In this document: in pieces, positions 16,579-44,788 of the stretch | Position numbering within the stretch: the first letter of the stretch is position 1 | How the letters are laid out: each line of letters starts with the position of its first letter | Assembly (NCBI GenBank): GCA_035280265.1 | Contig: DATEGE010000031.1 | Span: 3,995 to 67,994 of the forward strand | Reading direction: 5' to 3' | Length of the DNA: 64,000 nucleotides | Source: Gemmatimonadales bacterium | Lineage (GTDB): Bacteria > Gemmatimonadota > Gemmatimonadetes > Gemmatimonadales > GWC2-71-9 | Position numbers and translations under genes: made by a program | The notes under the pieces: generated by a model | What the model was told of the DNA's origin: nothing | What the model saw: only the letters and a program-made list of their open reading frames with translations | The model's database searches: none

Positions 16579-16593
16579 TAGATCGGACGCGCC

Positions 16594-19917: not shown

Positions 19918-20018
19918 GAGGGCGGCTAGAATCGCCGTGGCGCTCAGGCCCGTCAAGAGGTAGCGCGCGCGGCCCGGGTGGCGAAACGGCGCGTCATGCC
20001 GTACGATTTCCGCCGCCT

Positions 20019-23941: not shown

Positions 23942-23950
23942 GCCGGCAGG

Positions 23951-24000
23951 GAGGTTGGTGGAGGATGGTGGAGGTTGGTGGAGGTTGGTGGAGGTTGATG
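23951..24000 (+). repeat. 5 x 10-bp tandem repeat (GAGGTTGGTG)
   Basis: gaggttggtg gaggatggtg gaggttggtg gaggttggtg gaggttgatg. Confidence 0.9.
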
Positions 24001-25620: not shown

Positions 25621-25659
25621 CAGCGGATCGACACCGCCTTCGGGCGGGTATTCTCACCC

Positions 25660-26559
25660 ATGCCGGCCGTCCTACCGTGTCTCCTCGCATTTGCGCTCCA
25701 AGCCGGAGCGCCTGCTTCCCAACGACCCTCCGAGATCACGTGGCGTCCGCGCGTGCCACTCGAGGGATCACTCGTGATTCTCGTGGTTCGCTCTCCCGGC
25801 GGCGACGACAGTCTCGTCGGCATACGGGGGGGGACGCTGGCCGGCGAGGCGCTGCATTTCGAGCGCACGGCGGCTGGGTTCCACGCGTTGGGAGCGGTTC
25901 CGCTCGCCGGACCCGACAGCGTGACCGCTCAGGTCGTTGAGGAGCGTTCCGGGGGCGTCGCGGACACGATGACGGTGCCCATCCCTGTGCGCCGGCGGCG
26001 CGTGGCTGGGGAACGACTCCGGGTCGCACAGGAGTTCGCGGAGCCGCCCGACTCGCTGGTGGATCGCATCCGCACCGAACGAAACCTGCTCGATGACGTA
26101 CGGCAGCGGGCGCATGACACTCCGCGGCTGTGGCACGAGGCGTTCGTGCGGCCGCGACCCAGCCCGATCACGAGTGTGTTTGGAGTGCCGCGTATCCTGA
26201 ATGGAACGGTGCGGAGCCGTCATTACGGCGTGGACTTCGCGGGTCAAATGGGGGCGCCGGTTCGTGCGGCCAACCGCGGCGTGGTCGCGCTCGTCGCCGA
26301 TCTGTACTACAGCGGCACGACCGTCATCATCGATCACGGCGGCGGCCTCCTCACGGGGTACTTTCACCTGAGCAGTGTGCTCGTTGCGCGGGGCGACACG
26401 ATCGAGCGCGGTCAGCTGCTCGGTCGCGTGGGAGCATCGGGGAGGGTCACGCGACCGCACCTGCACTGGTTTGGAGCGTACGGAGGGGTGACGGTCGATC
26501 CGCTCGATCTTCTGAAGCTGGAACCGAGGCTCGAGTGGCGGAGGAAAGGCAAAGGCTAG
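25660..26559 (+). CDS. M23 family metallopeptidase
   Basis: HYGVD and HLH zinc motifs; signal peptide. Confidence 0.87.
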   Translation: MPAVLPCLLAFALQAGAPASQRPSEITWRPRVPLEGSLVILVVRSPGGDDSLVGIRGGTLAGEALHFERTAAGFHALGAVPLAGPDSVTAQVVEERSGGVADTMTVPIPVRRRRVAGERLRVAQEFAEPPDSLVDRIRTERNLLDDVRQRAHDTPRLWHEAFVRPRPSPITSVFGVPRILNGTVRSRHYGVDFAGQMGAPVRAANRGVVALVADLYYSGTTVIIDHGGGLLTGYFHLSSVLVARGDTIERGQLLGRVGASGRVTRPHLHWFGAYGGVTVDPLDLLKLEPRLEWRRKGKG

Positions 26560-26574
26560 TTGTGGCCTCCGCTG

Positions 26575-27564
26575 CTAGCCGAGGTACTCCTCTCTATACA
26601 TCTTGATGAGCTCAAAGAAGTACGACAGGGCGAGCGGTCCAATCAGCAATCCGAGAATGCCGAAGTACGGCACGCCTGCCAGCGCACCCAGGAGCGTGAC
26701 CAGCGGATGGATGTGCGCCCAGCGCTTGAAGATCCTCGGCCGGATCACGTAGTCGACGTTGCCGACCACCGCGGCGCCCCACAGGGCCAGCAGCAGGCCG
26801 GGAGCCGTGCGGCCCCCCAGCACGAGCGCGAGCGCACCGGGCCCCCAGACCAGGCCGCTCCCCACCACGGGGAGGATCGCGAACACCACGGTCACGACAC
26901 CCCAGAACACCGCATTCGGCAGGCCCGTCACCCAGAAGCCCAGCCCTACGAGGAATCCCTGAATCGCCGCGGTGAGGCCGGTGCCGATGATCGTCGCGCT
27001 GGTGACGTCGCGAAACCGCTGCCGCAGCTTTTCGGTGTTCTTGCCGGAAAACGGGATGTAGGGTTGTACCGCCGCCCACGTCTCGTGGGGCTGGAGCAGC
27101 AGATAGAAGAGCCCGAACAGCGAAATCGTCAGGTTGAGGGCGAGCCGGGTGGCGGTGCCCACCAGCCCGAACGCGGAGGAGCCGATCCATCCTACCAGCT
27201 GGGCGCCCAGGTCGGCGAGGCGGGGCCCCAGATCCACGCCGCCGATCCGCAGCTCCCGGAGCCGGCCGAGCACCGGATTCCGCACCACGCTCCCGGCGAT
27301 TTCCTGGGCCTGCCCGACGATGAGACCCGCGAAGGAGACGCCCGGCACGACGATCAGAAACAGCGCGAGCACAACGACGAAGGCCGCGGCGAAGCGGGGA
27401 CGCATCCGCATCTCCAGCCAGTCGTGTACTGGAGCGAAGATCGCGTACAACACCGGGATGCCGATGATGCCGGTGGCGTACGGCGTCAGGGCGATGACCA
27501 GCGCGGCTCCGAGCAGCAGCAGGAGAATCGCGGCCCGCTGGTGATTCGTGTCGATCAGCGCCAT
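26575..27564 (-). CDS. AI-2E family transporter
   Basis: Hydrophobic; LPVVGSGLVW, NVDYVIRP, HPLVTLLGALAG..FGILGLLIGP. True start MALIDTN at 27564; the 592-aa ORF call is over-extended. Confidence 0.88.
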   Translation of the reverse strand: MALIDTNHQRAAILLLLLGAALVIALTPYATGIIGIPVLYAIFAPVHDWLEMRMRPRFAAAFVVVLALFLIVVPGVSFAGLIVGQAQEIAGSVVRNPVLGRLRELRIGGVDLGPRLADLGAQLVGWIGSSAFGLVGTATRLALNLTISLFGLFYLLLQPHETWAAVQPYIPFSGKNTEKLRQRFRDVTSATIIGTGLTAAIQGFLVGLGFWVTGLPNAVFWGVVTVVFAILPVVGSGLVWGPGALALVLGGRTAPGLLLALWGAAVVGNVDYVIRPRIFKRWAHIHPLVTLLGALAGVPYFGILGLLIGPLALSYFFELIKMYREEYLG

Positions 27565-28949
27565 AGCTTGTACGTCTCCTTGGCGAGGTCGTAGGCGAGC
27601 GCCCGCGCCATGCGGCGCGCGTCCTCCAGCATGATCACGTGTCGCGCGACGAGCCCCGCGAGATAGTTCGCATCCACCCGCCGCGCCAGGTCGTGGCGCG
27701 CGGGAATGGAGCAGAATGCTCGTGTGTCGTCGGTGAAGCCGGCGGTCTTGTAGATGCTCGCGGTCTCCGTCGTGCGCTGCCGGAACCGCATCATCCCCTC
27801 GAGCGAATCGTGGAACCACCACGGCGCGCCGAGCCGCACCGCGGGATAGTGACCGGCGAGCGGCGCCAGCTCGCGACTGTACGTCGACTCGTCGAGCGTG
27901 AACAGTACCACCGTGAACTGGGGATCGTTGCCGTAGGCGTTGAGCAGCGCCCGCAGATTGCGCGTGAACTCCGTGGCGACGGGAATGTCGCCGCCGCGAT
28001 CGGGCCCGAACCGCTCGAACAGCGGCGCGTTGTGGTTGCGGAACGCCCCCGCGTGGATCTGCATGACCAGGCCGTCCGCCAGCGACATCCGAGCCATCTC
28101 CATCAAGAGATGGCCCTCGAAGCGGCGTTCGTCCGCTGCCGTCACCTTCCGTTGGCGCGCGAGCTGAAACAGCGTCTCGGCCTCCTCCGGTCGTAGCGCG
28201 TTGGTGTACGGCTCGAGTACCGCGTGATCGGTGGCGCTGGCCCCCAGCTCCTTGAAGCAGACGCGCCGATCCTCCAGCGCCGCCACGAACTCGGCGTAGT
28301 CGACGAGGGGGGCGCCGTGCTCGCGTCCCAGCGCCTCGAGCTCCGCGGGCCACCCCGGAGCGGCGATCTTGAACAGGCCATCGGGGCGGAAGCTCGGGAT
28401 CACCCGACCCCGCCAGCCCGACTCGCGGATGGCGCGGTGATGCTCCAACCGGTCGCTCGGCTTGTCGGTCGTGGCGAGCACCTCGATCCCGAAGCGCTCG
28501 AACAGTGTGCGGGGCCGGAATTCGGGTGAACGTAGCCGCTCGGCGATGGTGTCGTAAGTGCGGGCGGCCGTCTCGCCGTTGAGCCGCTCACGGATCCCGA
28601 ACACTTCGTGGAGCTCGTAGTCGAGCCACGCCCCGGTCGGCGTGCCCTGGAACAGGTCGTAGTGATCGGCGAACAGGCGCCACGCCGTGCGCGGTTCGGC
28701 GTCGAGCAGCGACTCCAGCTTGACTCCGCGCGCGTACAGCAGCCGCAGGATGTAGTGGTCGGGAAGCACGATCAGGGACGTGGGCTCGGGAAAAGGCGCG
28801 TCTTCGGCGAGCACGCGGGCATCGACGTGGCCGTGCGGCGAGACGATCGCGAGCCGGCATGTCTCATCGTACAGCGTCCGCGCCACGCGCCGAACGCTCG
28901 GATCGGGATCGAAAAACCGGTCCTCGTGGAGGACGAGCCGGTCCGCCAC
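27555..28949 (-). CDS. uxaC: glucuronate/uronate isomerase
   Basis: IVSPHGH, PDHY, GAPWWFHDS, GFTDDTRAFCSIPARHDLARR; GTG start overlaps the upstream stop. Confidence 0.92.
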   Translation of the reverse strand: MADRLVLHEDRFFDPDPSVRRVARTLYDETCRLAIVSPHGHVDARVLAEDAPFPEPTSLIVLPDHYILRLLYARGVKLESLLDAEPRTAWRLFADHYDLFQGTPTGAWLDYELHEVFGIRERLNGETAARTYDTIAERLRSPEFRPRTLFERFGIEVLATTDKPSDRLEHHRAIRESGWRGRVIPSFRPDGLFKIAAPGWPAELEALGREHGAPLVDYAEFVAALEDRRVCFKELGASATDHAVLEPYTNALRPEEAETLFQLARQRKVTAADERRFEGHLLMEMARMSLADGLVMQIHAGAFRNHNAPLFERFGPDRGGDIPVATEFTRNLRALLNAYGNDPQFTVVLFTLDESTYSRELAPLAGHYPAVRLGAPWWFHDSLEGMMRFRQRTTETASIYKTAGFTDDTRAFCSIPARHDLARRVDANYLAGLVARHVIMLEDARRMARALAYDLAKETYKLWR

Positions 28950-30259
28950 TACACGACGGGCGTCCAGCCCGGGGCGTATTCGCGCTGCCACAGCTTCATC
29001 GCGCCTCCGTCATCCACGATGCGACCCGAGGCGGGATCGATCCGCAGCGCGCGCCCGGTGGCTTGCGCGATGTTGCCGAGGTGGCAGAGCAGTACGCTCT
29101 TCACCCCTTCGGCGATCGGCTGGCGGAGCGCGATACCGGTACGGATCGCGTCGACGAAGTTCGCGATGTGCAGGCCGGTCATGTCGTCGTCGGCGGTGGT
29201 GTTGAGGCCGTCGCCGGCCGTGGCCGCGAGCGACTGTTTCACCTGCTTGTCCTTGAGGTCATACACGGCATAGCCGTCGCGATCGAACACCACACTCCCC
29301 GTGGTCCCGAGAATCGCCGTGCCGCGCGGACGGCCGTAGGTCGTCAGGCCGTTGCAGCTCTGCCCTTGCCAGATGATCGTCGTGCGGTTCGGGAACTCGA
29401 AGCACGCCTCCTGCGTGTCGGGGAACTCCCAGTCGTCGTCGAAGTGATACCGTCCCCCCGTCGATGTGACGCGCACGCAGGTGTCCACGCCCAACGCCCA
29501 GCGGCACACGTCGATCTCGTGCGTGCCGTTGTTGCAGATCTCGCCCGTGCCCCAGCGCCGGAACCAATGCCAGTTATAGTGAATGACGTTGTCGCGGTAC
29601 GGCGTGCGGGGTGCGGGACCCTGCCACAGTTCGTAGTCGAGACGGGTCGGAACGGGCGCAGGCTTGCCGCGCCCGATCGTGCCGCGGGTGTTGTCGTACC
29701 ACGCGCGCGCCAGGTACGGGCGCCCGATGAGGCCCTCCCTGATGGCCTGCACGACCTCGATCGAGAGCGGCGCCGACCGCTGCTGGGTGCCCATCTGCAC
29801 CACCCGTTGATGCCGGCGTTGCGCCTCCACGAGCAGCTCGCCCTCGCGCGGATTGTGGCCGCACGGCTTCTCGAGGTACACGTGCTTCCCGGCCTGCATC
29901 GCGAGGATCGCCGCGGGCGCGTGCCAGTGGTCCGGGGCCGCGATCACGAGCGCGTCCACGGCTTTGTCCTCGAGCGCCCGCCGGAAATCCGCGAGCGCCT
30001 TCGGGGCCTTCCTTTGAACGTCGGTGACGGCCGTGGCCGCCTTCGCGAGCACCTGCGCGTCCACGTCGCAGACGTACGCCACGGTGGCGTTGGCGGTCCG
30101 TGCGAACGCGCGGGCCAGCACGGTGCCCCGCGAGTTCAACCCCATCACCGCCACCGCGACCGTTTCGTTGGGTGAGCCAAACCACGAGGCGAGACGCGGG
30201 GATGCCGCGAGACCGAGTCCCGCGGCAGAGGTGGTCTGCAAGAAATGACGACGCTTCAT
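28949..30259 (-). CDS. Gfo/Idh/MocA family oxidoreductase, Tat-exported
   Basis: MKRRHFLQ Tat motif, APDHWH, HVYLEKP, GEICNNGTHEID. Confidence 0.9.
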   Translation of the reverse strand: MKRRHFLQTTSAAGLGLAASPRLASWFGSPNETVAVAVMGLNSRGTVLARAFARTANATVAYVCDVDAQVLAKAATAVTDVQRKAPKALADFRRALEDKAVDALVIAAPDHWHAPAAILAMQAGKHVYLEKPCGHNPREGELLVEAQRRHQRVVQMGTQQRSAPLSIEVVQAIREGLIGRPYLARAWYDNTRGTIGRGKPAPVPTRLDYELWQGPAPRTPYRDNVIHYNWHWFRRWGTGEICNNGTHEIDVCRWALGVDTCVRVTSTGGRYHFDDDWEFPDTQEACFEFPNRTTIIWQGQSCNGLTTYGRPRGTAILGTTGSVVFDRDGYAVYDLKDKQVKQSLAATAGDGLNTTADDDMTGLHIANFVDAIRTGIALRQPIAEGVKSVLLCHLGNIAQATGRALRIDPASGRIVDDGGAMKLWQREYAPGWTPVV

Positions 30260-31035
30260 AGGGCACGCACCTTGATGTTGCGGAAGTAGACCTCATCACC
30301 ATGATCCTGGAGCACCAGATGGCCGCGTCGCCGCTCGCCGAACCACGGGATCGACCGAAACTTGCTCTTGGCGAGCGCCGAATCCATGGCGGGGCTGCCG
30401 AGGTCGAACTCGAGCAGCTTCTCGCCGTTGAGCCAGTGCTCTCCGTGTTTGCCGCGAAAGATCACCCTGGACTGGTTCCACTCGCCCACCGGATGCACGT
30501 GCGTGGGCCGGGTTGGCGCGATGAGATCGTACAGCGCCCCGGCGCGATGGCTCGGCAGCTTTCCGTCCACGTGCCGGTCGTCGTCGAGGATCTGATACTC
30601 GAATCCCAGCGCGGCGTGGTTCGGGGCGGTCTTGACCGACAGCTCCTCGGAGACGTTGTACTTGAGGCCGCTGTTGGCGCCCGGGGTGACCTTCCACTCC
30701 CACGTCGCCTCGAAGTCGCCGAAGGTGTCCACGGTCATCAAGTCGCCGCCGTTGAGCGGTTGGCCGTCCGGCAGCTTCGGGACGGCTCCGCTCGCGATCT
30801 TCTTGATGGTGCCGTTCACGACCACCCAATGCGCCGTGGGAACGGTGTCGTAGCCGAGCCCGCGCCACCCCGCGAGTGTGCGCCCGTCGAACAACAGGCG
30901 CCAGCCCGTGGCGCGCTCTGCGTCCGTCAGCGTGTTGGCGGCATCCGCCGGAGCGCGGGTCTGCGCGTATCCCGCCCCGCCGACCGCACACGCCACGAGC
31001 AACACGCCGATTGTTCCGCTCTTCCTGTCCATCAT
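30256..31035 (-). CDS. DUF1080 (3-keto-disaccharide hydrolase family) protein
   Basis: WRLLFDG, ANSGLKY, EYQILDD, GEWN, HWLNG, LQDHG..VYFRNIK; signal peptide. Confidence 0.9.
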   Translation of the reverse strand: MMDRKSGTIGVLLVACAVGGAGYAQTRAPADAANTLTDAERATGWRLLFDGRTLAGWRGLGYDTVPTAHWVVVNGTIKKIASGAVPKLPDGQPLNGGDLMTVDTFGDFEATWEWKVTPGANSGLKYNVSEELSVKTAPNHAALGFEYQILDDDRHVDGKLPSHRAGALYDLIAPTRPTHVHPVGEWNQSRVIFRGKHGEHWLNGEKLLEFDLGSPAMDSALAKSKFRSIPWFGERRRGHLVLQDHGDEVYFRNIKVRAL

Positions 31036-31108
31036 GGCCCCCCCTCCCCACGGTAACCGGGTTTGTCGTCCTTGGCGAGCGTCCGTCTTACCGTGCTAAG
31101 TTGTCTGC

Positions 31109-32035
31109 GTGACCACGCGCCGTGAATTCCTCCAGACCGCGAGTGCGATCCTCGCCGCTGGCCGGGCGCACCCGAACCGAGCCGGACGACTTCCGCTCGG
31201 CTTCTCGACCCTGGGTTGTCCCCAATGGGACTGGAGCCGCATCCTCGACTTCGCTGCCGCGCATGAGTTCGCCGCCGTCGAGCTGCGCGGGCTGCAGGCC
31301 AGCATGGACCTCACCGAGCGTCCGGAGTTCGAGCCGGCTCACATCGCCCAGACCAAACGGCAGCTCGCCGCGCACGCGCTCGTCGTGTCGTGTCTCGGCA
31401 GCTCGGCGAACATGCACGAGATGGATGAGGGCGTACGCGCCAAGCAGCTCGCCGAGGCACGCCGCTTCATCGATCTGGCCCAGGCGCTGGGCGCGCCGTA
31501 CGTGCGCGTGTTCGGCAACAAGTTCGTGGCGGGCGTTCCGCGCCAGAAGATGCTCGCCCACATCGCCGCCGGGCTGCACCAGCTCGGCGCCTACGCGCGG
31601 GGCAAAGGCGTCACCGTCCTGATCGAGTCGCACGGCGACTTCACCGACTCGCCGACCCTGCTCGAGATTCTCCACCTGGCTGACTCCCCCGCCGTGGGGC
31701 TGCTGTGGGACGCGCACCACACGTACGTCTCGGGCAAGGAGCAGCCGGAGGACACCATCCGGCAGGTCGGCGGCTACGTCCGACACACGCACCTGAAGGA
31801 CTCGGTGCCGGCGGGCGGCGATCGGCGCTACGTGCTCACGGGGACCGGCGACGTACCGGTGGAGCGTCAGGTCGCGGCGCTCGCCAAGACCGGGTACCGC
31901 GGCTGCTACAGCTTCGAGTGGGAGAAGCGCTGGCATCCGGAGATCGAGGAGCCTGAAGTCGCCTTCGCCCAGTTCGCGACCGTGGCCCGTGGCTACCTGG
32001 CCCGCGCGGGCGTGAGCGCGGCGCCGGCACGGTGA
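31109..32035 (+). CDS. xylose isomerase-like TIM barrel (sugar phosphate isomerase/epimerase family), Tat-exported
   Basis: TRREFLQ, FSTLGCP, IESHGDF, WDAHH, HTHLKDS, SFEWEK. Confidence 0.87.
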   Translation: MTTRREFLQTASAILAAGRAHPNRAGRLPLGFSTLGCPQWDWSRILDFAAAHEFAAVELRGLQASMDLTERPEFEPAHIAQTKRQLAAHALVVSCLGSSANMHEMDEGVRAKQLAEARRFIDLAQALGAPYVRVFGNKFVAGVPRQKMLAHIAAGLHQLGAYARGKGVTVLIESHGDFTDSPTLLEILHLADSPAVGLLWDAHHTYVSGKEQPEDTIRQVGGYVRHTHLKDSVPAGGDRRYVLTGTGDVPVERQVAALAKTGYRGCYSFEWEKRWHPEIEEPEVAFAQFATVARGYLARAGVSAAPAR

Positions 32036-32040
32036 CCCCC

Positions 32041-34188
32041 CTACGGCTGATCGAGCGCGAACGCCACGTACCGCGCCGGCGTCCTGGCTTTCGACTTCCC
32101 GCTGCTCGTCGCAATCACGACGAACTGGCGGCCGGCGACCTCGTAGACCGCGGGCGTCGCGTTCCCCGCAGCCGGGAGCGTCGTTTCCCATAGCAGGTCG
32201 CCCGTGGCCTTGTCGAACGCGCGGAACTTGTCGTCGTAGTTGGTCGCCCCAATGAACAACAAGCCGCCAGCCGTGACGACGGGACCGCCGTAGTTCTCGC
32301 AGCCGGTTCCCGCCGTCCCCTGAGCGGCGAGCGCGCGATATTCGCCTAGCGGCACCTTCCAAATGTACTTGCCGGTGTTCAGGTCGATCGCGCTGAGCGT
32401 ACCCCACGGTGGTTTCACCGCCGGATAGCCATCGGGGTCCAGAAACCGCTCGTACTGGACGTGGTATCGCTGCTCGGTCCACACCCCCTGTCTCCCTCTC
32501 CCCTTCGCTAAGCTCTGGGCAGGCTCTTCGGGAGCGGGGAAACCCACAGCGGGTGAGGACGTCACGTAGCGCTCGATCGCCCCGAGCGCATCCGCGCCCA
32601 GGCGCGCGAACCCCGGCATCCGCCCGCCACCGTCCGCGATGGCCGCCCGGATCTCAGGAATCGTGAGCCGGTTGGTCACGTCCACCACGGAAGGGATGGT
32701 GGGTGGCGACCCCGTGCGATCCTTCCCGTGACAGCCGGCGCATTCCCGCATGTACAGCTCGCGGCCGCCCGTCCCGGCCGTCACTGGTGCACGTTCCACG
32801 AGGCTGACGATCCACGGCATCTCGTTCGCGTTGACGTACAGCATCGCCGTTTCGGGGTCGAAAGCGGCGCCGCCCCATTCCGCGCCGCCGTCCAAGCCCG
32901 GAAACACGATGGTGCCCTGGAGACTCACCGGGATGAACTGGCCGCCGCTCCGCACCTTCCGGAAGCGCTCGAGCACGGCGCGGTGCGCCTCCGGCGTCCG
33001 GTCGGTGAGCATGTCTTCAGTCAGCTGCTGGCGCGCGAACGGTTCGGGCACGAGGGGCAGTGGCTGCGAGTCGGCGGTAACCTCGCCTTCTACGTCCGAC
33101 GATGGGTACTTCCGAAACTGGATCGGGAAGAGCGGCCGTCCGGTCTCGCGCTCGAACACGAACACGTGGCCGGACTTGGTGACCTGCGCGACTGCGTCGA
33201 TGCGGCGGCCGCCGCGACGCACGGTGACGAGATTGGGCGGCGCGGGGAGATCGCGATCCCAGGTGTCGTGCCGCACCACCTGGAAATGCCAGACGCGCTC
33301 GCCGGTCGCCGCGTTGAGAGCGATGAGCGCGTCGGCGTACAAGTCGTCGCCCACGCGATTGGCGCCGTAAAAGTCGTCTGCCGCGGAGCCCGTGGGCACG
33401 AACACGAGGCCGCGTTGCACGTCGAGCGACATCCCGGTCCAATTGTTCGCCGCGCCGGTGTAGGTCCACGCGTCCTTCGGCCACGTCTCGTACCCTGGCT
33501 CGCCGGGGTGGGGCACGGTATGGTACGTCCACCGCAACGCGCCCGTTCTGACGTCGTACGCGCGGATGTCACCAGGCGGCGTGGGGAGGGCCTCCGCCGT
33601 GCGGCTCCCGATGATGAGCAGGTCCTTGTAGACGATCCCGGGCGTGCCGAGATCGATCATCAGCTTCTCTCCCGCCCGGAGCCCGTCCCGCATGTCGACG
33701 CGCCCGCCGTCGCCGAAGCTCGCGAGCGGGCGCCCGGTCTTCGCGTCAAGGGCGTACAGGAACTGATGCACCCCGACGAAGATTCGCTCGTCTCCCCGAC
33801 CGTCGCTCCAATAGGTCACACCCCGAGTCCGACCGCCCCCTCCACGGACCGCACGCCCACGATACGGGTCGAAGCGCCACACCAGGGTGCCGGTAGCGGC
33901 GTTGAGGGCGACGACGTAGAGACTCACCGTCGTCGTATATAGAATGCCATTCACCACGATGGGATTGACTTCGAGCTCCGAGGTCTCGACGCCATCACTG
34001 GCGTCGAACGTCCACGCGACCTTCAGGTGCTTCACGTTCGCGCGGTTGATTTGGGTGAGCGACGAGTAACGAATGCTTTCCGGACCGCCGCCGTACACTG
34101 GCCATTCGACGGCCTGGTAGGGGAGTCCCCGGGGTGACGCGGCCAGCGTCCCCGCCGCGAGGGGCAGCACCCAGAACGGGAGTCGCAT
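32041..34188 (-). CDS. PQQ-dependent sugar dehydrogenase with inserted cytochrome c domain
   Basis: [41 protein letters not shown] heme motif, [16 protein letters not shown]. Confidence 0.87.
32493..32540. repeat. REP-like palindrome inserted in frame
   Basis: TCCCTCTCCC ... GGGAGCGGGGA arms flanking CTTCGCTAAGCTCTGGGCAGGCTCTTC. Confidence 0.5.
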
Positions 34189-34192
34189 CAGG

Positions 34193-35896
34193 TCACAGGT
34201 TGCCGCGCTTCAACCCCTCCACCGCGTGTTCGCAGGCGCGCGCCGTCAGCGCCATGTAGGTGATCGATGGGTTCACGCACGACGAGCTGGCCATACAAGC
34301 GCCGTCCGTCACGAACAGGTTGGGCACGTCGTGCGCCTGGTTGTGCGCATTGAGCACGGATGTCTGGGGGTCGAGCCCCATGCGTGCGGTGCCCATCTCG
34401 TGGATCGCGAACCCGGGCTCCGCGCCCAGCTGGTCGCCGCCCTTGTAGGCATCGTACGTGTGGACGTCCTTGCACCCCGCCGCCTCGAGCATCTCCGCGG
34501 CCGATGCGGCCATGTCCTTGCGCATCGCCAGCTCGTTATCGCCCCACGTACAATGGATCTTCAGCAACGGGATGCCGAAGTCGTCGGTCTTATCGTCGAG
34601 CGTGACGTAATTGTCCTGGCGCGGGAGGCACTCGCCGAACCCGGTGATGCCCATCGACCAGCCGCCGGGATCGTGCAGCCGCCGTTTCAGCTCCACCCCC
34701 AACCCGCGTCCGCTGCCCCCGCGCCCCCAACCCTGGCGGCTGGCTCCACCCTGGTAGCCGAACCCCCGCACGTACTCCCGGCGCGACGCCTCGTCCCCCA
34801 GGTTGCGGAACCGCGGGATGTAGATGCCGTTCGGGCGATTGCCTTGGTAGTAGTGCTCGAGCAGCCCGTCGATCTCTCCCCTCGCGCCAGCCAGGAAATG
34901 ATGGTCCATCAAATACCGCCCCAACACACCGCTCGAGTTGCCGAGGCCGTTCGGGAATCGCGGCGACGTCGAGTTGAGCAGGATTCGCGTGGTCGCGAGC
35001 GTGGACGCGCACAGGAACACCATACGCGCCTGGTACTCGCGGGTCGCCTTCGTGACGGTGTCCAGGACTCTGACGCCAGTGACGCGGTTCTTGTTCGCGT
35101 CATACAGCACCGAATGCACCACACTGTTCGGCAGCAGGGTGAGCCGTCCGGTGGCGCGCGCCGCGGGCAACGTGGACGACTGGCTCGAGAAATACGAACC
35201 CGTGGAGCAGCCGCGCTCGCACGGCCCGCAGTAGTGGCAGGGGAGCCGGCCGTTCACGGGCTGCGTGAGGATCGCCACCCGCCCGATGGTCACATGGCGG
35301 CCGGGAAACGCCTTCTCGATCCCGGCCTTCACGAGCACCTCGCCCGCGTTCATCTCCATGGGAGGCTGGAACTCGCCGTCGGGCAGCTGTGGCAGTCCCA
35401 ACCGTTCTCCGCTCACACCGATGAACCGCTCCACGTAGCTGTACCATGGCGCGATGTCGGCGTAGCGGATCGGCCAGTCCACGCCGTGGCCGTCGCGCAG
35501 GTTCGCCTCGAAGTCCAGGTCGCTCCACCGGTACACCTGCCGTCCCCAGATCAACGACTTGCCGCCCACCTGGTCGCCCTGGATCCAGGTGAACGGCTTG
35601 TCCTCGACGTAGGGGCTTCTCGCGTCCTTCATGAAGAAGTGCTTGTTCGATTCGCGGAATTGCCCGGTACGGGCCTGGACGGGGTACTCTTCAGCCCCCT
35701 TGGTGCCCACGCTGAGCCGGGCGTCGTGCAGCGGGAGCTCCCAGCTCGGCTTGTGCTCGGTGACGTAATCCTTGCGGTGCTCCACCTGGCGGCCGCGTTC
35801 GACGACCAGCGTGCGGAGGCCTTTCTCGGTCAGCTCCTTTGCCGCCCACCCTCCGCTGATGCCGGACCCGACGACGATGGCGTCGTAGGTGATCAT
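34193..35896 (-). CDS. GMC family flavoprotein (glycoside 3-dehydrogenase catalytic subunit-like)
   Basis: [38 protein letters not shown] Fe-S motif, [23 protein letters not shown]. Confidence 0.9.
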
Positions 35897-36489
35897 GCCC
35901 AGGCCTTCCCCACCGAGCTGTACGGAATGTCGCCGCGGTACGCGCCGAACGGCGTGAGGTGCAGCTCCTGGGTGGCGCCGACCTGCGATGTGTAGTAGCC
36001 GACCAGCGTCAGCTCTTTGAGTCGGCGGAAGAACCAGCTGTCGGGTGTCGCCTCGCCCCCGCCCTCCGGGTACGCGGCCTCATCCATCTCGGTGAGCAGC
36101 GCCACCCGCTGCTCTGGCGTGCACTCGACGAACGCTTTGTCGTACCGAGACCGCGATCGCGCATCGACGTCCGCCAGGCTGGCAAGGAAGCGATCGCGCT
36201 CGGAGGCCGGGTAGTGATCGCTGAGTAGAGTGTCGGTAAAGCGATGCACGCCGGCGCTCCGGGCGCCCGGCGTCTCGGTTTCGGGAATGATGTGGTCGGC
36301 CATCACGGCGACGAGCTCGAGCTGGGTGGGGCTCAGGGCCCGCGGCGCCCATCCTTGGGCGATGGTCCACCTGCCGTGCGTGGCCGCGTCGAGCACGCCC
36401 GCGAGCGTGGGGGCCGAGATCGCGCCACCGAGCAGCAGCGCGACCCTGCCGAGCGCTTCGCGTCGAGTGATCTGGTCAGCACGCTCCAT
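35893..36489 (-). CDS. gluconate 2-dehydrogenase subunit 3 family (Tat partner of the GMC)
   Basis: ITRREAL Tat motif, IIPETETPGA, LTLVGYYTS. Confidence 0.88.
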   Translation of the reverse strand: MERADQITRREALGRVALLLGGAISAPTLAGVLDAATHGRWTIAQGWAPRALSPTQLELVAVMADHIIPETETPGARSAGVHRFTDTLLSDHYPASERDRFLASLADVDARSRSRYDKAFVECTPEQRVALLTEMDEAAYPEGGGEATPDSWFFRRLKELTLVGYYTSQVGATQELHLTPFGAYRGDIPYSSVGKAWA

Positions 36490-36495
36490 CGGGCC

Positions 36496-37725
36496 TCACA
36501 TGCTGTCGGGAGGGAGTTCGGCGACGATCGCCGGTTGGAGCCGGGGCGCCAGAAGATGAATGATACACCAGGCGGAGATGTAGGCGAGCCCGCATACGAT
36601 GAAGATCGGTGTGTAGTCGCTGCCGTTGGCTTCGAGAATACGGCCCGTCGCCCGCTGGAACAACCAGCCTCCCATCGCGCCCGCGAACGCCCCGATGCCG
36701 ACCACCGAGCCTACCGCGGCCCGTGGAAACATGTCGCTCGCCAGCGTATACACATTCGCCGACCAGGCCTGATGCGCCGCCGCAGCAACGCTCACGATCG
36801 CCACGGCGGTCCACACGCTGCCCGCCAACGGTGCGAGGGCGGTGGGCACGATCAGGCACGCCATGACGAGCAGCGCCGTCTTGCGCGCCCGGTTGACGGT
36901 CCAGCCACGCTTGATCAGGCTGCTGGAGAGCCATCCGCCGGTCACCGATCCGACGTCGGCCACGAGGTAGACGACGATGAGGGGCCGGGCCAGCTGCGTG
37001 AGGTGGATGCCGTATTTCGTATCCAGGAATTTCGGGAGCCAGTACAGATAGAACCACCAGATCGGGTCGGCCATCAGCTTCCCGACCGCGAATGCCCACG
37101 TCTGCCGATACCCGAGTAATTGGATCCACGGCACCGCGACCGTCGCCACTTCGGCCTGACGCGTGTCCGGATCTCGGTACAGCACGAGCCACAGCCCTAG
37201 CCACGCAAAGCCGAGTGCTCCCGTGGCGATGAACGCCCACGGCCAGCCCCACCGTAGGGCGATCCATGGCACGAGCAACGGCGCGACGATGGCTCCGGTG
37301 TTGGTGCCGGCGTTGAAGATGCCGGTGGCGAGGGCCCGCTCGCGCGGCGGGAACCACTCGGCCACCGCTTTGATGGCGCCGGGGAAGTTGGCGGACTCGC
37401 CGAGGCCGAGCAGCGCGCGGGCGGCGGAGAAACCGGCCGCGGTGCGCGCGAGCGCATGGCCGATCGCCGCGACGCTCCACACCACGATCGCGACCGCGAA
37501 GCCGCGCCGCACGCCGATGCGGTCGAGCCAGCGCCCGACGGCGAGGAACCCGAAGGCGTAGACCAGGGTGAACCACGAGACCACGCTGCCGTATTGCGAC
37601 TCCGACCAATGCAACTCCCGCTGCAACGTCGGCGCGAGGATGCTCAGGACTTGGCGATCGATGTAGTTGATCGTCGTCACGACGAACAACAGCGCACACA
37701 CCGTCCAGCGGTACCGCCCCGTCAC
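36496..37725 (-). CDS. exuT: MFS transporter, hexuronate (ExuT-like)
   Basis: [50 protein letters not shown]; located in a uronate operon. Confidence 0.75.
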
Positions 37726-38762
37726 GCGTCACTGCGGGCCATAGCTTCCCATAGCCCCTGCAAGTACATCACGCCAAGGGCGCGATCGTACAGGCCGTAT
37801 CCGGGGCGTCCGGTCTCACCCCAGATCATACGGCCGTGGTCCGGACGCATCGGGCCCGCAAAGCCCACGTCCTGGAGCGCGCGCAGCACGCTCCACAGGT
37901 CCACGCTCCCGCAAGCCGACGGATGTGCCGTCTCGTGGAACGATCGCGGGCCCGTGAGGCGGACGTTGCGGCAATGGGCGAAGTGGATCCGGTTGCCGAG
38001 GCGGCGCACCATGCTCGGCAAGTCGTTGTCGGGGTTGGCGCCGAGCGAGCCGGTGCAGAACGTCACGCCGTTGGCGGGGTGGTCCACGAGGGCCGTGAGC
38101 CGGTCGAGCGCGGCGGCATTGGTGATGATGCGGGGCAGCCCGAAGATCGGCCACGGCGGGTCGTCCGGGTGGATCGCCATCCGCACGCCCGCTTGCGCCG
38201 CTACCGGCACGACCCGCTCGAGGAAGTACGCGAGGTTCGCCCACAGGCGCTCCGCGTCCACGTCGCGGTACGCCGCGAGCAGCGCCCCCACCTCCTCGGC
38301 CCGGTATGCGGTGGCCCACCCGGGGAGCTGTCCCGTCCCGCGCGACAGATCGATCGCGGCGAGTGCGCGGTCATCGTACGCCAGCGCCGTCGAGCCGTCG
38401 GGCAATCGGTGCAGGAGGTCGGTGCGCGTCCAGTCGAACACCGGCATGAAGTTGTAGCACAACACCGGCACACCGAGCTCGCCGATGCGCTGCACGCTGG
38501 CGCAATAGCCGTCGATGAGCCGGTCCCGGGTCGGTCGGCCCAGCTTGATGTCTTCGTGGACGGGGACGCTCTCGACCACGGCGAAGTGGAGCCCGGCGTC
38601 TTCGATCTCCGCCTTCAGCGTGCGGAGCCGGTCGCGCCCCCAGGCCTCACCGACGGGGATTTCGTATAGGGCCGTGACGACGCCGGTCACACCGGGGATC
38701 TGGCGGATGTGCGAGAGCGAGACGGCGTCGGCGGGGCCGAACCAGCGAAAGCTCGGGATCAC
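37722..38762 (-). CDS. uxuA: mannonate dehydratase
   Basis: [52 protein letters not shown]. Confidence 0.93.
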
Positions 38763-39763
38763 GCCTGCAGTCGCGCCTCGACGTCGCGCGCGCTGGCGCG
38801 GCTGAAGTCCCCGGGCACGGTCAGCTTCAACGCGCTCGCGGCCACCGCGAACTCGAGCGCGCGAGCCGGCGTCTCCCGCGCGAGCAGCTGAGCGATGAGC
38901 GCTGCGGCAAAGCTGTCGCCACCGCCCACGCGGTCGACGACCTGCACATCGTGGCGCCGGCTCTGGGCAAAGGCACGCTCGCCGGTGTCATACAGCATCG
39001 CGCTCCAGCCGTGCTCGCGCGGCCCGAAGATCTCACGCCGGGTGAGCGCCACGCGCCGGGCGCCCACGCGCTGCGCGACCTCCTCGGCCAGCTCCCGAGC
39101 CGCTGCCGCGGTCGCGAGTGGATCGCCCTCGGCGTGAACGGCGAGCATCGCGCGCAGCGCCGCGACATTGCCGATCAGCACCGCCACTCCCCGGAGTAGC
39201 GGTTCGATGACGTGCCGCGGGTCCCGGCCCCGCCACAACGCCTCGCGATAGTTCAGGTCGAAGCTCACGGGCGTGCCCTGGGCGTGCGCGCACGCGAGGG
39301 CGGCGGCAAGGGCCGCGGCCGGTCCCGCCCCCAGCGCGGGCGTGATCCCCGACGCATGGAACCACACGGCCCCCGCCAGGATGCGGCCCCAATCCAGGTC
39401 ACTCGGCTCGACACGCGCGAACGCCGAGCCGGCGCGGTCGTATACCACCTGCATGTCGCGCAGATCGGCGGTTGGCTCGACGAAGTAGATCCCGAGGCGG
39501 TCGCCGCGTTCGGCCCGCACGATCCACTCGGTCCCGACGCCCTCCCGCTTGAGCGCCGCGATCCCCGCCTCGCCGATGGGGTTGTCCGGGACGCGCGTGA
39601 CGTAATCACACCGCACCCCGAAATGGCTGAGCGCGACCGCCACGTTCGCCTCCGCCCCACCGAAGTAGCTCACGAGCTGGCCCGACGCGAACAGGCGCTC
39701 CTCGCCGGGCGGGCTGAGCCGCAGCAGCAGCTCACCGAAGGTCACGACCCTCGCGTCGCTCAC
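38759..39763 (-). CDS. kdgK: 2-keto-3-deoxygluconate kinase (PfkB family)
   Basis: [37 protein letters not shown]; GTG start overlaps the eda stop. Confidence 0.85.
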
Positions 39764-40416
39764 CCGCGCGCCTCCGCGACGCGGGTGACGAGCGCCCACG
39801 CCCTCGCCGTCAGCTCCGCGGTCCGATCCGGTTGGAGGAGCGCGGCGGTCACGAGCGCGCTCCCCACGCTCACCGCCGCGGCGCCGGCGCGGATCCAGTC
39901 GCCGGCGTTCTCGAGCGACACGCCGCCCGACGGCGCGAGCCGCAGGAAGGGCAGGGGAGCGAGCACGTCACGCACGTAGCCGGGACCGACCGCCGAGGCG
40001 GGGAACAGCTTCACGAGCTCCGCCCCGCCACGCCACGCCTCGACCAGCTCCGTCGGCGTGAACGCGCCCGGGATGCACGGGACGTCCCGGTCGCGGCACG
40101 CGCGCATCACGGCCAGGTCGAGGGTCGGGCTCACCACAAAGCGCGCCCCGGCGTCCATGACCGAACGGGCGGCGGACACGTCCAGCACCGTGCCCGCGCC
40201 CACCAGGCAGCCGAGCGCCTGGTCCGCCGCGAGGTCGGCGATCGTATCGATGGCGCCTGGCGTCGTCAGCGTTACCTCCACGGCTCGCACGCCTCCCGCG
40301 GCGAGCGCCCGGGCGACGCCGCGCAGCGGGTGACTCGCGGAGAGACGGACGACCGCGATCACGCCGCTCTCGAGCACCGGTCCTAAGCCGGGACGCGCTG
40401 CCGTCGTGGTCGACAT
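39760..40416 (-). CDS. eda: KDPG/KHG aldolase
   Basis: IAVVR, EVTLTTP, GAGTVL, FVVSP, PGAFTPTE, VKLFPA, PSGGV. Confidence 0.9.
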   Translation of the reverse strand: MSTTTAARPGLGPVLESGVIAVVRLSASHPLRGVARALAAGGVRAVEVTLTTPGAIDTIADLAADQALGCLVGAGTVLDVSAARSVMDAGARFVVSPTLDLAVMRACRDRDVPCIPGAFTPTELVEAWRGGAELVKLFPASAVGPGYVRDVLAPLPFLRLAPSGGVSLENAGDWIRAGAAAVSVGSALVTAALLQPDRTAELTARAWALVTRVAEARG

Positions 40417-40418
40417 GC

Positions 40419-41879
40419 TCAGGGCAGGCCGGAGGTCATGTGGTCGGGCGCTCGTTGCAACGCGGCGAGCGCCCCATCCACGCCGTCGCGCTCGAGCGTC
40501 AGCAGCCAGTAGCTCGTGGCGTCGAGAAACCCTGGGAGGCGCGCGAGACTCACGCCCCACAGCTCCGCGTCGGCAAGGGCGCGCGCGGCGAGTTCCTCCC
40601 ATGTGGTCACGGCGCGCCAATGGCGCTCGACCAGCGATCGATCGGCATCCTGTCCCCGGGCGCCCCCGGCACCCCCGAGGCGCGCCCACCGCAGGTACGC
40701 CGCGCACGCGAGGGAGAGTCCCCGCGGAACGGACGCGCGCTTGCGGTCAAATGCCACGATCGCCGGCACGATCCGCAGCCGCCACTTCGCCGTCTCATTC
40801 GTGGCGATCACCCGCCACTCGTGATCGAGCCAGGGGTTGCGAAACCGGTCGAGCACGTCACGCGCGAAGGCGAGCCCCGAGTCCCGGGGCACGTCGATCG
40901 CGGGCACGATCTCCTCGAACAGGATGTGCTGAAGGAACATGCTCAGCCGCGGGTGGTCGGTCGCCTCCCGCACCGTCCGTACGCCGGCCAGGAGCGCGAG
41001 TGGCGCCATCGCGGTGTGCGCACCGTTCAACAGTCGCAACTTGCGCTCCCGATAGAACGTGATGTCGGGCTGGAAGATCACCGACTCGGGTGACACGTCG
41101 ATCGGGAACGCCGGCCGCAGCGCCGCCGGATCCGCCTCGATCGCCCAGAGGAGGTGGGGCTCCGCGACGGTGAGGAGCGAGTCATGATAGCCGAGCTGGT
41201 GCTCGAGCGTCGCGAGCCCGGCTGGAGCAGGGGTGCCCGTCGTGATCCGGTCGACCAGCGAGGAGCAGAACCGCACCTGCCGCGCCAGCCACGCGCGGAA
41301 CTGCGGGCCGGGGTCGTGCTCGCGCGCCAGGCGCTCGACCATGGCAGCCAAGCGGGGTCCGTTCTCGTCGACCAGCTCGGTGGGGATCACGAACAGCGGA
41401 GGACCGTCGGGGAGGTGTGTGAAGCGGGTGTGCAGGAGATCCGTCAGGCGAGCGGGAAAAGTGCCCTCGGGGCGAAAGCCTGCCTCCGTCACGTTGCTCA
41501 CGATCACCCGCAGCTCGGGCCCGGCCGCCACGGCGCACACGGCGTCCCACTCCGCGTCCGCGACGAGCGCTCGGGAAATCGAGCCGATGAGCCGGGTGCG
41601 CTCGACCGGACGCCCGTGCTCGAGGCCACGCTCCACCAGCGTGAACAGACCATCCTGGGCGTTGATCGCACTCGCCCGGCCCCGGCCCTCGGGGGTGCTC
41701 TGCACGACGACGATGCGACCGCCGAAGGCGCCGGCGCGGTTCGCGGCATCCACCGCGGTCGCGCACACCGCGCGGAGCAGCATTCCGCTGCCGAATTGGA
41801 GCACGCGCTCCGGGAGCGCGGATCGTGGGTAGGCTTTGGTCGGCCAGCGCGTGTCGCTCAGGCGCTCGAGATCGCGCAT
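40419..41879 (-). CDS. tagaturonate reductase-like mannitol dehydrogenase family oxidoreductase (UxaB-like)
   Basis: ERVLQFG.G.LLRA, INAQDGLFTL, PTELVDENG, SLVDRI, YRERKLRLLNGAHT, RFRNPWLDH. Confidence 0.78.
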   Translation of the reverse strand: MRDLERLSDTRWPTKAYPRSALPERVLQFGSGMLLRAVCATAVDAANRAGAFGGRIVVVQSTPEGRGRASAINAQDGLFTLVERGLEHGRPVERTRLIGSISRALVADAEWDAVCAVAAGPELRVIVSNVTEAGFRPEGTFPARLTDLLHTRFTHLPDGPPLFVIPTELVDENGPRLAAMVERLAREHDPGPQFRAWLARQVRFCSSLVDRITTGTPAPAGLATLEHQLGYHDSLLTVAEPHLLWAIEADPAALRPAFPIDVSPESVIFQPDITFYRERKLRLLNGAHTAMAPLALLAGVRTVREATDHPRLSMFLQHILFEEIVPAIDVPRDSGLAFARDVLDRFRNPWLDHEWRVIATNETAKWRLRIVPAIVAFDRKRASVPRGLSLACAAYLRWARLGGAGGARGQDADRSLVERHWRAVTTWEELAARALADAELWGVSLARLPGFLDATSYWLLTLERDGVDGALAALQRAPDHMTSGLP

Positions 41880-41927
41880 GGCGACAAAGTGATCTCCAGG
41901 CGGGGAGCGCGCTACCTCCCCGTCCGA

Positions 41928-43784: not shown

Positions 43785-43821
43785 GCGTGTCCGGAATCTA
43801 GCAGCGCCCGGGCGGGAGAAG

Positions 43822-43840
43822 TACTTGACATAGTCAAGTA
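43822..43840. promoter_or_regulatory. palindromic operator (probable MarR site) overlapping TTGACA
   Basis: TACTTGAC-ATA-GTCAAGTA perfect 8-bp arms in the 74-bp divergent gap upstream of the MarR-GNAT gene. Confidence 0.7.
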
Positions 43841-43858
43841 TCTGGCAAGATTCCCCGC

Positions 43859-44788
43859 ATGGCGCCGCGCGGGCTGGAACAGCGGGTCGAAGCGGCGCGC
43901 CGGTTCAACCGGTTCTATACGCGGAAGATCGGCGTGCTGCACGCGGGGGCGTACGACAGCCCGTTCTCGCTGACCGCGGTGCGGGTGTTGTACGAGCTGG
44001 CACATCGCGATCGCCCCACGGCGACGGAGCTGGGCCGCGAGCTGGGGCTCGATGCCGGCTATCTGAGCCGCCTGCTCCGCGCCTTCGAGAAGCGTGGCCT
44101 GGTCTCGAAAACCCGCTCCACCACCGATGGTCGGCAGAGCCACCTCGCGCTCACCGCCCAGGGGCGCAAGGTGTTCGCGCCGCTCAATGCCCGCTCGCAC
44201 GACGATGTCGCCGCCATGCTGTCCGCCCTGTCCGCGAGCGAGCAGGACGACGTGATCGCTTCGATGCTGACGATCGAGCGGCTGCTGGGCGATCGTGAGC
44301 GGCCGGAACGATCGCTCCTGCTGCGGCCGCCGCAGCCGGGCGACCTGGGGTGGGTGGTGCAGCGGCACGGCGCGGTCTACGCCCAGGAGTACGGCTATAA
44401 CGCAGACTTCGAAGCACTCGTGGCCGGGATCGTGGCCCACTTCGTTCAGCACAACGACGTCAAGCGGGAGCGCTGCTGGATCTCGGAGCTGGACGGCGAG
44501 CTCGTCGGCTGTGCATTTCTCGTCAAGCAGTCGGCGACCGTCGCGAAGCTGCGTCTACTCCTGGTGGAGCCCGCGGCGCGCGGCGCGGGCCTCGGCACCC
44601 GCCTGGTCGATGAGTGCGTTCGCTTCGCCCGCCAGGCCGGCTACCGCAAGCTCACCCTGTGGACGCAGAGCGAGCTCACCGCGGCCCGGCGCCTCTACGA
44701 GAAGGCCGGCTTCCGGCTGACCCGCGAGGAGCGTCACCACAGCTTCGGGAAGGACCTGGTGGCCGAGACGTGGGACCTGGCGCTGTGA
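43859..44788 (+). CDS. bifunctional MarR HTH regulator / GNAT acetyltransferase
   Basis: RRFNRFYT, LDAGYLSR wHTH, then GDLGWVVQRHG..Y, LRLLLVEP..RG.GLG. Confidence 0.92.
   Translation: MAPRGLEQRVEAARRFNRFYTRKIGVLHAGAYDSPFSLTAVRVLYELAHRDRPTATELGRELGLDAGYLSRLLRAFEKRGLVSKTRSTTDGRQSHLALTAQGRKVFAPLNARSHDDVAAMLSALSASEQDDVIASMLTIERLLGDRERPERSLLLRPPQPGDLGWVVQRHGAVYAQEYGYNADFEALVAGIVAHFVQHNDVKRERCWISELDGELVGCAFLVKQSATVAKLRLLLVEPAARGAGLGTRLVDECVRFARQAGYRKLTLWTQSELTAARRLYEKAGFRLTREERHHSFGKDLVAETWDLAL

Follow-up and report, generated by a model that had tools for sequence, protein, structure and literature searches.

Exported 3-keto-glycoside pathway families within a hexuronate catabolic locus of a Gemmatimonadales soil bacterium

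The cleavage of glycosides via 3-keto intermediates is established chemistry, as is its use on glucuronides, and loci combining GMC, DUF1080 and TIM-barrel genes are common. DUF1080 proteins are 3-keto-glucoside lyases/hydratases, TIM barrels act as 1,2-lyases, and a Gfo-type enzyme catalyses the oxidation of the glycoside as well as the reduction of 3-keto-glucose; P2B11, a cluster of four genes, acts on alpha- and beta-glucuronides, cleaving them via a 3-keto intermediate, and AL3 oxidises glucuronides (bioRxiv 10.1101/2024.03.25.586180). In Caulobacter and Pedobacter, DUF1080 works together with dehydrogenases of the LacABC type (PMC9007349). Here we describe a locus in a 64,000 nt stretch of a Gemmatimonadales genome (GenBank assembly GCA_035280265.1, contig DATEGE010000031.1, positions 3,995 to 67,994; from here: the window), in which genes of these families lie among genes for hexuronate catabolism. 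The locus, at positions 27555–41879 of the window, comprises 12 genes: two translationally coupled runs on the minus strand (runs A and B) and one divergent gene for a TIM barrel exported by the twin-arginine translocation (Tat) system.

Uronic acids are major constituents of plant cell walls, gums, algal and bacterial exopolysaccharides and conjugated xenobiotics, and their release is at present credited to glycoside hydrolases (GHs) and lyases. From the gene content we consider it about an even chance that in this bacterium a periplasmic 3-keto route frees hexuronate from uronides for import and catabolism by the isomerase pathway. If so, uronates would be released independently of hydrolases in an abundant, poorly cultivated soil phylum, and surveys based on carbohydrate-active enzymes would miss it. 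The principle itself is published; the advance would lie in the variant and its ecological setting. A DUF1080–Gfo pair fixed within the uxa/uxu operon in a single bacterial order, an interchangeable GMC/PQQ dehydrogenase slot and DUF1080::PQQ-cytochrome c fusions all appear to be undescribed.

The DUF1080–Gfo pair and its hexuronate neighbours

The source assembly (3.0 Mb, 238 contigs, 94.6% complete) stems from a soil Gemmatimonadales bacterium. Because its GC content of ~68% gives rise to many long spurious open reading frames (ORFs), genes were accepted only with family support, and protein families in the window were assigned with Pfam and NCBIfam searches. Relatives were surveyed in two samples: 61 genomes from the order of the source, with Gfo orthologues called at E ≤ 1e-80, and an even sampling of the phylum with 401 genomes from 147 genera. 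In the following, G-numbers denote genomes of relatives and L-numbers fetched loci, L140 being a metagenomic contig.

Run B consists of three minus-strand genes. The first encodes a DUF1080 protein of the 3-keto-glycoside lyase/hydratase family (30256–31035; PF06439, 154 bits at a cut-off of 26.8) with a signal for general secretion (Sec); with 192 bits against the PDB entry 4jqt and 131 bits against 8tda it is a clear family member. The Gfo/Idh/MocA oxidoreductase (Gfo; 28949–30259; PF01408 plus C-terminal domains) carries a Tat signal and is joined to DUF1080 by an ATGA overlap. The run ends with the glucuronate isomerase UxaC (27555–28952), which reached 511 bits against its NCBIfam equivalog (cut-off 387). 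Its ORF is open to 28991 and the UxaC proteins of relatives align from residue ~18; the start is likely the GTG at 28952, overlapping the stop codon of Gfo in a GTGA.

This arrangement recurs in relatives. In the 61-genome sample UxaC was present in 20 genomes and a Gfo orthologue in 16, and all 16 Gfo genes were located directly upstream of UxaC. All 16 genomes with Gfo possessed UxaC, as opposed to 4 of the 45 without Gfo (Fisher p = 2e-11, phylogeny ignored), and in close relatives the two genes form an obligate pair. Across the phylum sample a Gfo orthologue was detected in 29 genomes, which represent 13 of the 147 genera and belong to only two families. DUF1080 adjoined Gfo in 26 of these 29 and UxaC did so in 19; counting 6 genomes in which it lies elsewhere, UxaC occurred in 25.

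In most UxaC-bearing Gemmatimonadales, DUF1080–Gfo is placed between UxaC and a sugar-acid transporter gene of the major facilitator superfamily (MFS), and the conserved unit is MFS-(TIM2)-DUF1080-Gfo-UxaC, with TIM2 as a second type of TIM barrel. G009 carries Mdh-Eda-KdgK-UxuA-MFS-TIM2-DUF1080-Gfo-UxaC on one strand, and the second family has UxuA-MFS-DUF1080-Gfo-UxaC (G043, G047). Other layouts are SusC-SusD-TIM2-Gfo2-DUF6807-MFS-DUF1080-Gfo-UxaC (G022, G025, G017), UxaA-DUF1080-Gfo-UxaC (G030) and a plain hexuronate operon without the DUF1080–Gfo pair (G026). The exported DUF6807 protein is a regular companion of TIM2–Gfo2 in SusC/D loci (L137 8294–9361, L138 1787–2824, L204 6–566), and in one large genome its gene immediately precedes a second uxaC. 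On contig C83 of G021 (10.8–49 kb; L149, L150, L036), parts of the module are scattered across ~40 kb. The intervening genes encode GH51, two GH2 enzymes, a GH109-like Gfo enzyme, an aldose epimerase, SSF transporters and DUF5107, which suggests a larger heteroglycan-utilisation region.

Run A, likewise on the minus strand, is headed by a Mannitol_dh-family reductase (40419–41879; PF01232/PF08125). Its initial annotation as UxaB-like was borne out by 422 bits against the NCBIfam tagaturonate reductase subfamily (cut-off 359), compared to only 85 bits for the UxuB type, though UxuA is present and UxaA absent; tblastn with the UxaA of a relative found no homologue in the source genome. The reductase heads an operon containing UxuA in every relative examined. 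It probably serves as fructuronate/tagaturonate reductase, and fructuronate would be the substrate here. It is followed by the 2-keto-3-deoxy-6-phosphogluconate (KDPG)/2-keto-4-hydroxyglutarate aldolase Eda (39760–40416; PF01081, 139 bits), the ATG of which lies 2 nt past the reductase stop codon, and by a KdgK-like PfkB kinase (38759–39763; PF00294, 125 bits). The kinase ORF is open to 39799; its start is likely the GTG at 39763, whose GTGA also contains the stop codon of eda. The mannonate dehydratase UxuA (37722–38762; PF03786, 482 bits; 405 bits against the NCBIfam uxuA equivalog, cut-off 200) begins in a further GTGA overlap. Next comes an MFS transporter (36496–37725; MFS_1, 181 bits) of the anion:cation symporter (ACS; galactonate/hexuronate) type. 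Initially annotated as exuT, it is an ACS-family member that scores below the NCBIfam cut-offs (239 bits against TIGR00893, cut-off 395). In relatives this transporter gene is found immediately 5′ of DUF1080 or of the dehydrogenase genes.

Thus the components UxaC, UxuA, 2-keto-3-deoxygluconate (KDG) kinase and KDPG aldolase of the isomerase (Ashwell) pathway are all present according to Pfam and NCBIfam, and each hexuronate gene, UxaC included, exists as a single copy in the genome. Every junction within the two runs is a GTGA or ATGA overlap or a gap of 2–6 nt, and the junctions suggest shorter real starts for KdgK (39763), Eda (40416) and UxaC (28952). The two runs flanking a Tat TIM-barrel gene, with all families named in the initial annotation, were recovered from the Pfam and NCBIfam searches and the reading of the junctions.

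Just 48 nt (41880–41927) separate the first gene of run A from a gene for an MsbA-like ABC exporter, and this spacer holds a conserved hairpin, GGGGAG-N8-CTCCCC, that also exists in G007. A scan of positions 27000–44500 for promoters and terminators gave counts no higher than expected from shuffled sequence. At a distance of ~8 kb from uxaC, the window contains a SusC/SusD pair among large FG-GAP/ASPIC-UnbV (CRTAC1-like) proteins together with a YdjC-like gene (11354–19956 and 76–9093); a link to the hexuronate locus is not evident.

The xylose-isomerase-like TIM barrel (31109–32035, plus strand; PF01261, 122 bits) has the Tat motif TTRREFLQ. Its gene is divergent from DUF1080 across a 73-nt spacer and convergent with the last gene of run A. 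The AlphaFold model has a predicted local distance difference test score (pLDDT) of 85.7, and Foldseek matched it to generic family members at template modelling (TM) scores of 0.70–0.73, the structural neighbours being an isomerase, UlaE, AsbF, IolE and ketose (3-)epimerases. An inositol-to-tagaturonate pathway of the Thermotoga type was considered and rejected as the main reading: the IolO/IolE/IolG scores were weak, tenfold under the cut-offs, and the proteins are exported.

Twin-arginine motifs were found in Gfo, TIM, TIM2, Gfo2 and the dehydrogenase subunit 3 described below, and the Gfo motif KRRxFLK is present in 18 of 18 orthologues. Sec-type signals occur on DUF1080, DUF6807 and the PQQ-cytochrome c enzyme, and none of the cytoplasmic pathway enzymes has an export signal. 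The contrast between an exported module and signal-free pathway enzymes fits a periplasm-to-cytoplasm model. TIM2 has been annotated as a signal-less protein of 251 amino acids (L053 6189–6944, L143 8030–8782 and others); these starts are miscalled, since the upstream open frame encodes a conserved twin-arginine signal (PRRxFL).

The exported dehydrogenases

Downstream of the transporter gene, run A continues with three genes for exported dehydrogenases. Subunit 3 (Gluconate_2-dh3; 35893–36489; PF13618, 115 bits) has a twin-arginine signal, and its ITRREAL motif is kept in orthologues. It is joined by an ATGA overlap to the large subunit of a GMC-type dehydrogenase dependent on flavin adenine dinucleotide (FAD; 34193–35896; GMC_oxred_N/C). 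The nearest solved structures of this GMC protein are the large subunit of fructose dehydrogenase and the alpha subunit of FAD-glucose dehydrogenase (~126 bits), and NCBIfam gave distant GMC matches only. The GMC protein has no signal peptide of its own, which is consistent with hitch-hiking on the Tat-exported subunit 3.

The last gene (32041–34188; Pfam PQQ, 647 bits; Sec signal) encodes a pyrroloquinoline quinone (PQQ) beta-propeller dehydrogenase with a c-type haem, resembling membrane glucose dehydrogenase (mGDH). Its haem domain is not C-terminal but inserted in the mGDH-like propeller: a Cytochrome_CBB3 domain at residues 473–542 splits the Pfam PQQ match in two, with a single CAGCH at residue 483. 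The best NCBIfam family was TIGR03074 (glucose/quinate dehydrogenase type), with 461 bits and below its cut-off, and the nearest solved structures were 1kb0, 1yiq and 1kv9 (125–136 bits over the first ~330 residues). The PQQ enzyme is the sole haem protein of the cluster, and G007 lacks it. We rejected the idea that it serves as the cytochrome subunit of the GMC complex because L140 has PQQ instead of GMC and subunit 3 and because the PQQ enzyme is also found on its own in unrelated contexts.

GMC orthologues at an identity of at least 74% were found in ~20 genomes, 15 of them with usable context. All 15 adjoin uronic-acid genes, and 12 are located by hexuronate genes, either after MFS as in the window, before DUF1080-Gfo-UxaC, or after UxaA (UxaA-sub3-GMC in L055 and L057, with sub3 for subunit 3). 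The other three, in sister genomes, belong to SusC-SusD-sub3-GMC-Hepar_II_III_C loci near GH127 and a GntR/FCD regulator. In L134/L051 (4496–16866), where sub3-GMC is 89% identical to that of the window, this array is followed by GH127 and the regulator and preceded by a fucosidase and fucose-catabolic genes, a layout repeated in G022 and G001.

The dehydrogenase slot is modular, and GMC with subunit 3 and PQQ-cytochrome c are interchangeable accessories. G007 shows the window arrangement minus the PQQ gene (sub3-GMC only). The L140 contig has Mdh-Eda-KdgK-UxuA-MFS-PQQcyt, TIM and DUF1080-Gfo-UxaC, with PQQ-cytochrome c in the position of sub3-GMC. Neither dehydrogenase type exists in the loci of G009, G043 and G047. 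The initial annotation had counted both dehydrogenases to the core of a module syntenic with uxu/uxa genes. That synteny holds for DUF1080–Gfo, with Gfo by UxaC in 16 of 16 and 19 of 29 genomes, and not for the set as a whole, in which both dehydrogenases are variable.

Among the 120 best PQQ-cytochrome c homologue clusters, 14 consist of proteins of 890–960 residues in which the signal peptide is followed by a DUF1080 domain at the N-terminus (P0020, P0023, P0026, P0028, P0036, P0037, P0041, P0047, P0048, P0054, P0061, P0091, P0099 and P0103). These fusions share 68–79% identity with the PQQ enzyme of the window. The gene for one of them shares a SusC/D locus with GH97, a TIM barrel and two Alginate_lyase genes. 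Carbohydrate genes do not surround this family in every case: one close PQQ-cytochrome c homologue is placed among housekeeping genes, another beside GMC, GH5, TIM and GH51. In the literature searched, no paper mentioned PQQ together with DUF1080.

A proposed 3-keto route and its alternatives

The module families are few in the source genome, with three GMC, two subunit 3, two DUF1080 and three to four Gfo genes and one gene for this TIM barrel. As these families are small, the hexuronate genes single copy and the linkage recurrent in relatives, chance co-location is rejected. The absence of a classical beta-glucuronidase, initially noted for the window, extends to the genome, in which no GH2 catalytic domain was found: Pfam domains for GH2 catalysis (GH2_C), GH28, GH67, GH88/105 and GH115 were all missing from the 94.6%-complete assembly. 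With none of these classical uronate-releasing families, the genome has no recognisable classical means to free uronic acids, as far as a ~95%-complete metagenome-assembled genome goes. The heparinase II/III-like protein, GH127, DUF6807 and TIM2 of relatives have no homologues in the source genome either. A second module, away from hexuronate genes, is located on contig C143 (~11400–27000) with DUF1080 (43% identity), Gfo (28%), GMC (35–39%) and a 282-aa protein with a Tat signal, and a further GMC–subunit 3 pair exists on contig C202.

From the gene layout we propose that a cytoplasmic Ashwell pathway and a sugar-acid MFS importer are transcriptionally fused to an exported oxidise-then-eliminate set. 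A uronic-acid glycoside or oligosaccharide would enter the periplasm, where the Tat-exported Gfo, with its bound nicotinamide cofactor, would oxidise the non-reducing uronosyl residue at C3. Alternatively, this oxidation might be performed by GMC, carried out by the Tat-exported small subunit, or by PQQ-cytochrome c, with the electrons passing to the respiratory chain. DUF1080 and the Tat TIM barrel would then remove the aglycone by elimination and hydrate the glycal so formed, and Gfo would reduce the 3-keto-uronate to free hexuronate. After import by the MFS transporter, UxaC and the downstream enzymes would yield pyruvate and glyceraldehyde 3-phosphate. We infer the regiochemistry, the substrate and the order of the steps. 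The presence of UxuA and the absence of UxaA make a glucuronide-type substrate the most likely one. The genes next to the module in sister genomes (GH51, GH2, GH127, fucosidase, fucose catabolism, alginate- and heparinase-type lyase-like) point to complex plant or microbial glycans bearing uronic acids.

By analogy with described systems, DUF1080 and Gfo may represent the minimal cleaving unit, sufficient for alpha-linked residues; TIM barrels would extend the range, and GMC with subunit 3 and PQQ-cytochrome c would act as optional oxidants with a link to respiration. In its broadest form the proposal states that Gemmatimonadales obtain hexuronates without any glycoside hydrolase, by means of a periplasmic 3-keto 'uronidase' (Tat-Gfo plus DUF1080, with or without TIM) in a uxa/uxu operon. 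This would be driven by either respiratory dehydrogenase; one of the two, a PQQ quinohaemoprotein whose cytochrome c domain is internal and which in some cases is fused to DUF1080, would form a class not described before and serve as a glycoside 3-dehydrogenase. In this full extent we regard it as tentative and somewhat doubtful. The locus provides defined targets for assays, namely the Gfo–DUF1080 pair and a PQQ-cytochrome c enzyme that is swappable with, and sometimes fused to, parts of the 3-keto pathway.

Several observations weigh against the release of hexuronates by a 3-keto route. The best NCBIfam match of Gfo, the BT_2158 glycoside 3-dehydrogenase, gave 124 bits against a cut-off of 750 and covered the N-terminal 290 residues, and the PDB entries 8tdf and 8tdh gave 72–74 bits over residues 29–250, the N-terminal half only. 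By these scores Gfo would belong to the BT_2158 superfamily, with BT_2158 as its nearest family, and not to the equivalog. We take 8TDF, 8TDA and 8TDH to be proteins of the AL and BT systems; the depositors' names are generic, and a literature look-up gave no confirmation. A search of the TIM fold for 3-keto-glycoside or C-glycoside lyases matched no specific lyase family, and judging by the model the TIM barrel looks as much like an epimerase/isomerase as like a lyase. No multihaem cytochrome c subunit for the GMC pair was found in the window cluster or in orthologous loci. The reductase and dehydratase are not a matched pair, as a UxaB-type reductase accompanies UxuA. For the window and six relatives, the sequence upstream of the reductase and the TIM/DUF1080 spacer had no 9-mer in common beyond close relatives, and hence no common operator was found. 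In 10 of the 29 genomes with a Gfo orthologue, hexuronate genes were absent within 10 kb, and 4 of these 10 lack UxaC altogether; no alignment column distinguishes the 19 hexuronate-linked from the 10 unlinked orthologues. Finally, GMC pairs at 55–65% identity in Acidobacteriota, Rhodothermales, Bacteroidota and gammaproteobacteria have kept TIM and Gfo neighbours and have no hexuronate genes.

Some of these points would be accommodated if the module acted on neutral sugars only and were co-regulated with hexuronate catabolism because both serve a shared mixed polymer. The module would then strip glucosyl- or galactosyl-like residues by the 3-keto route, the uronates being freed otherwise or scavenged. 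The characterised DUF1080, LacABC and AL/BT systems all but one act on neutral glycosides, the wider GMC clade (Acidobacteria, Rhodothermales, Bacteroidota) lacks hexuronate neighbours, the unlinked Gfo orthologues show no diagnostic substitutions compared to the linked ones, and sister loci mix GH51, GH2, GH127, fucosidase and fucose-catabolic genes, as expected of complex heteroglycans. We nevertheless consider this alternative unlikely. DUF1080–Gfo is wedged between a transporter gene and the only uxaC with 4-nt overlaps, and it is so placed in two families, which is tighter than membership of the same regulon needs. Moreover, neither run contains a transporter or kinase for neutral sugars, and the genome encodes no recognisable enzyme for freeing the uronates.

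The neighbours of the TIM barrel in structure space raise a different alternative, according to which the periplasmic enzymes convert uronates, free or terminal, into one another by C3 oxidation, metal-dependent epimerisation on the TIM barrel and re-reduction, and cleave no bond. Mannuronate-, guluronate- or iduronate-type uronates that UxaC cannot use would thereby become glucuronate or galacturonate before import. The closest TIM structures, ketose 3-epimerases, UlaE, IolE and an isomerase, agree with this idea, as do the epimerases and reductase that Caulobacter needs beside lacABC after 3-oxidation (PMC9007349) and the occurrence, in relatives, of Alginate_lyase and heparinase II/III-like genes next to those of the module. 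Yet the best-kept partner of Gfo is DUF1080 (26 of 29), known as a lyase/hydratase and not as an epimerase, and several minimal MFS-DUF1080-Gfo-UxaC operons do without TIM genes, which makes pure epimerisation very unlikely.

Free sugars or sugar acids might instead be oxidised directly in the periplasm, in the style of Pseudomonas or Gluconobacter, with a keto-acid passing through the MFS transporter to the KDG/KDPG steps. This would suit a subunit-3 family named for gluconate 2-dehydrogenase, a PQQ propeller nearest to membrane glucose/quinate dehydrogenases, the translational coupling of MFS-sub3-GMC-PQQ and the presence of a PfkB kinase and Eda, but it is very improbable, given that the multihaem cytochrome c subunit and a 2-ketogluconate reductase/kinase set are absent, that the dehydrogenases are dispensable (none in G009, G043 and G047), and that DUF1080-Gfo-UxaC and the DUF1080::PQQ fusions are left unexplained.

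Comparison with described systems

Release of hexuronates by a periplasmic 3-keto route would have its closest counterparts in the AL1-AL3/BT2156-BT2160 systems of Alistipes and Bacteroides (bioRxiv 10.1101/2024.03.25.586180, PMC8121099), with which the locus shares an exported Gfo/Idh/MocA enzyme, DUF1080 and a sugar-phosphate-isomerase-like TIM barrel. In contrast to these systems, the genes described here are part of a hexuronate operon, between a sugar-acid MFS gene and uxaC, and belong to the phylum Gemmatimonadota. Furthermore, Gfo falls far under the family cut-off, the TIM barrel is not specifically related, and respiratory dehydrogenases (GMC with subunit 3, PQQ-cytochrome c) have been added.

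For the P2B11 cluster the chemistry proposed here was shown experimentally (bioRxiv 10.1101/2024.03.25.586180). P2B11 comes from a Gram-positive source and consists of two oxidoreductases and two isomerase-like proteins, without DUF1080, a transporter or a link to uxaC/uxuA. No sequence kinship between Gfo and P2B11 was detected, as P2B11 was not among the PDB matches at E ≤ 1e-10.

The LacABC/glucoside 3-dehydrogenase clusters of Caulobacter, Pedobacter and Agrobacterium (PMC9007349) have in common with the locus a signal-less GMC flavoprotein, a Tat-exported small subunit, and DUF1080 and TIM genes nearby. In these clusters periplasmic oxidation feeds the respiratory chain, as may by analogy be the case here. 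Unlike them, the locus lacks a LacC-type cytochrome c subunit, a PQQ quinohaemoprotein replaces the flavoprotein in some genomes, and the neighbours are hexuronate or uronate-polysaccharide lyase-like genes instead of neutral-sugar genes.

With the uxaCA/uxuAB/exuT/kdgK/eda regulon of the E. coli type, the locus shares the UxaC and UxuA equivalogs, single-copy KdgK and Eda and an ACS-family transporter. It differs in the absence of UxaA, UxuB and a UidA-type glucuronidase, in the UxaB type of its reductase and in the insertion of genes for exported redox and lyase proteins within the operon.

Type II quinohaemoprotein alcohol dehydrogenases (1kb0, 1yiq, 1kv9) resemble the PQQ-cytochrome c enzyme in combining a soluble PQQ propeller and one haem c in a single chain. 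In the enzyme of the window, however, the cytochrome domain interrupts the propeller instead of following it at the C-terminal end, the membrane glucose/quinate dehydrogenases are the closer family for the propeller, and relatives of the enzyme are fused to DUF1080.

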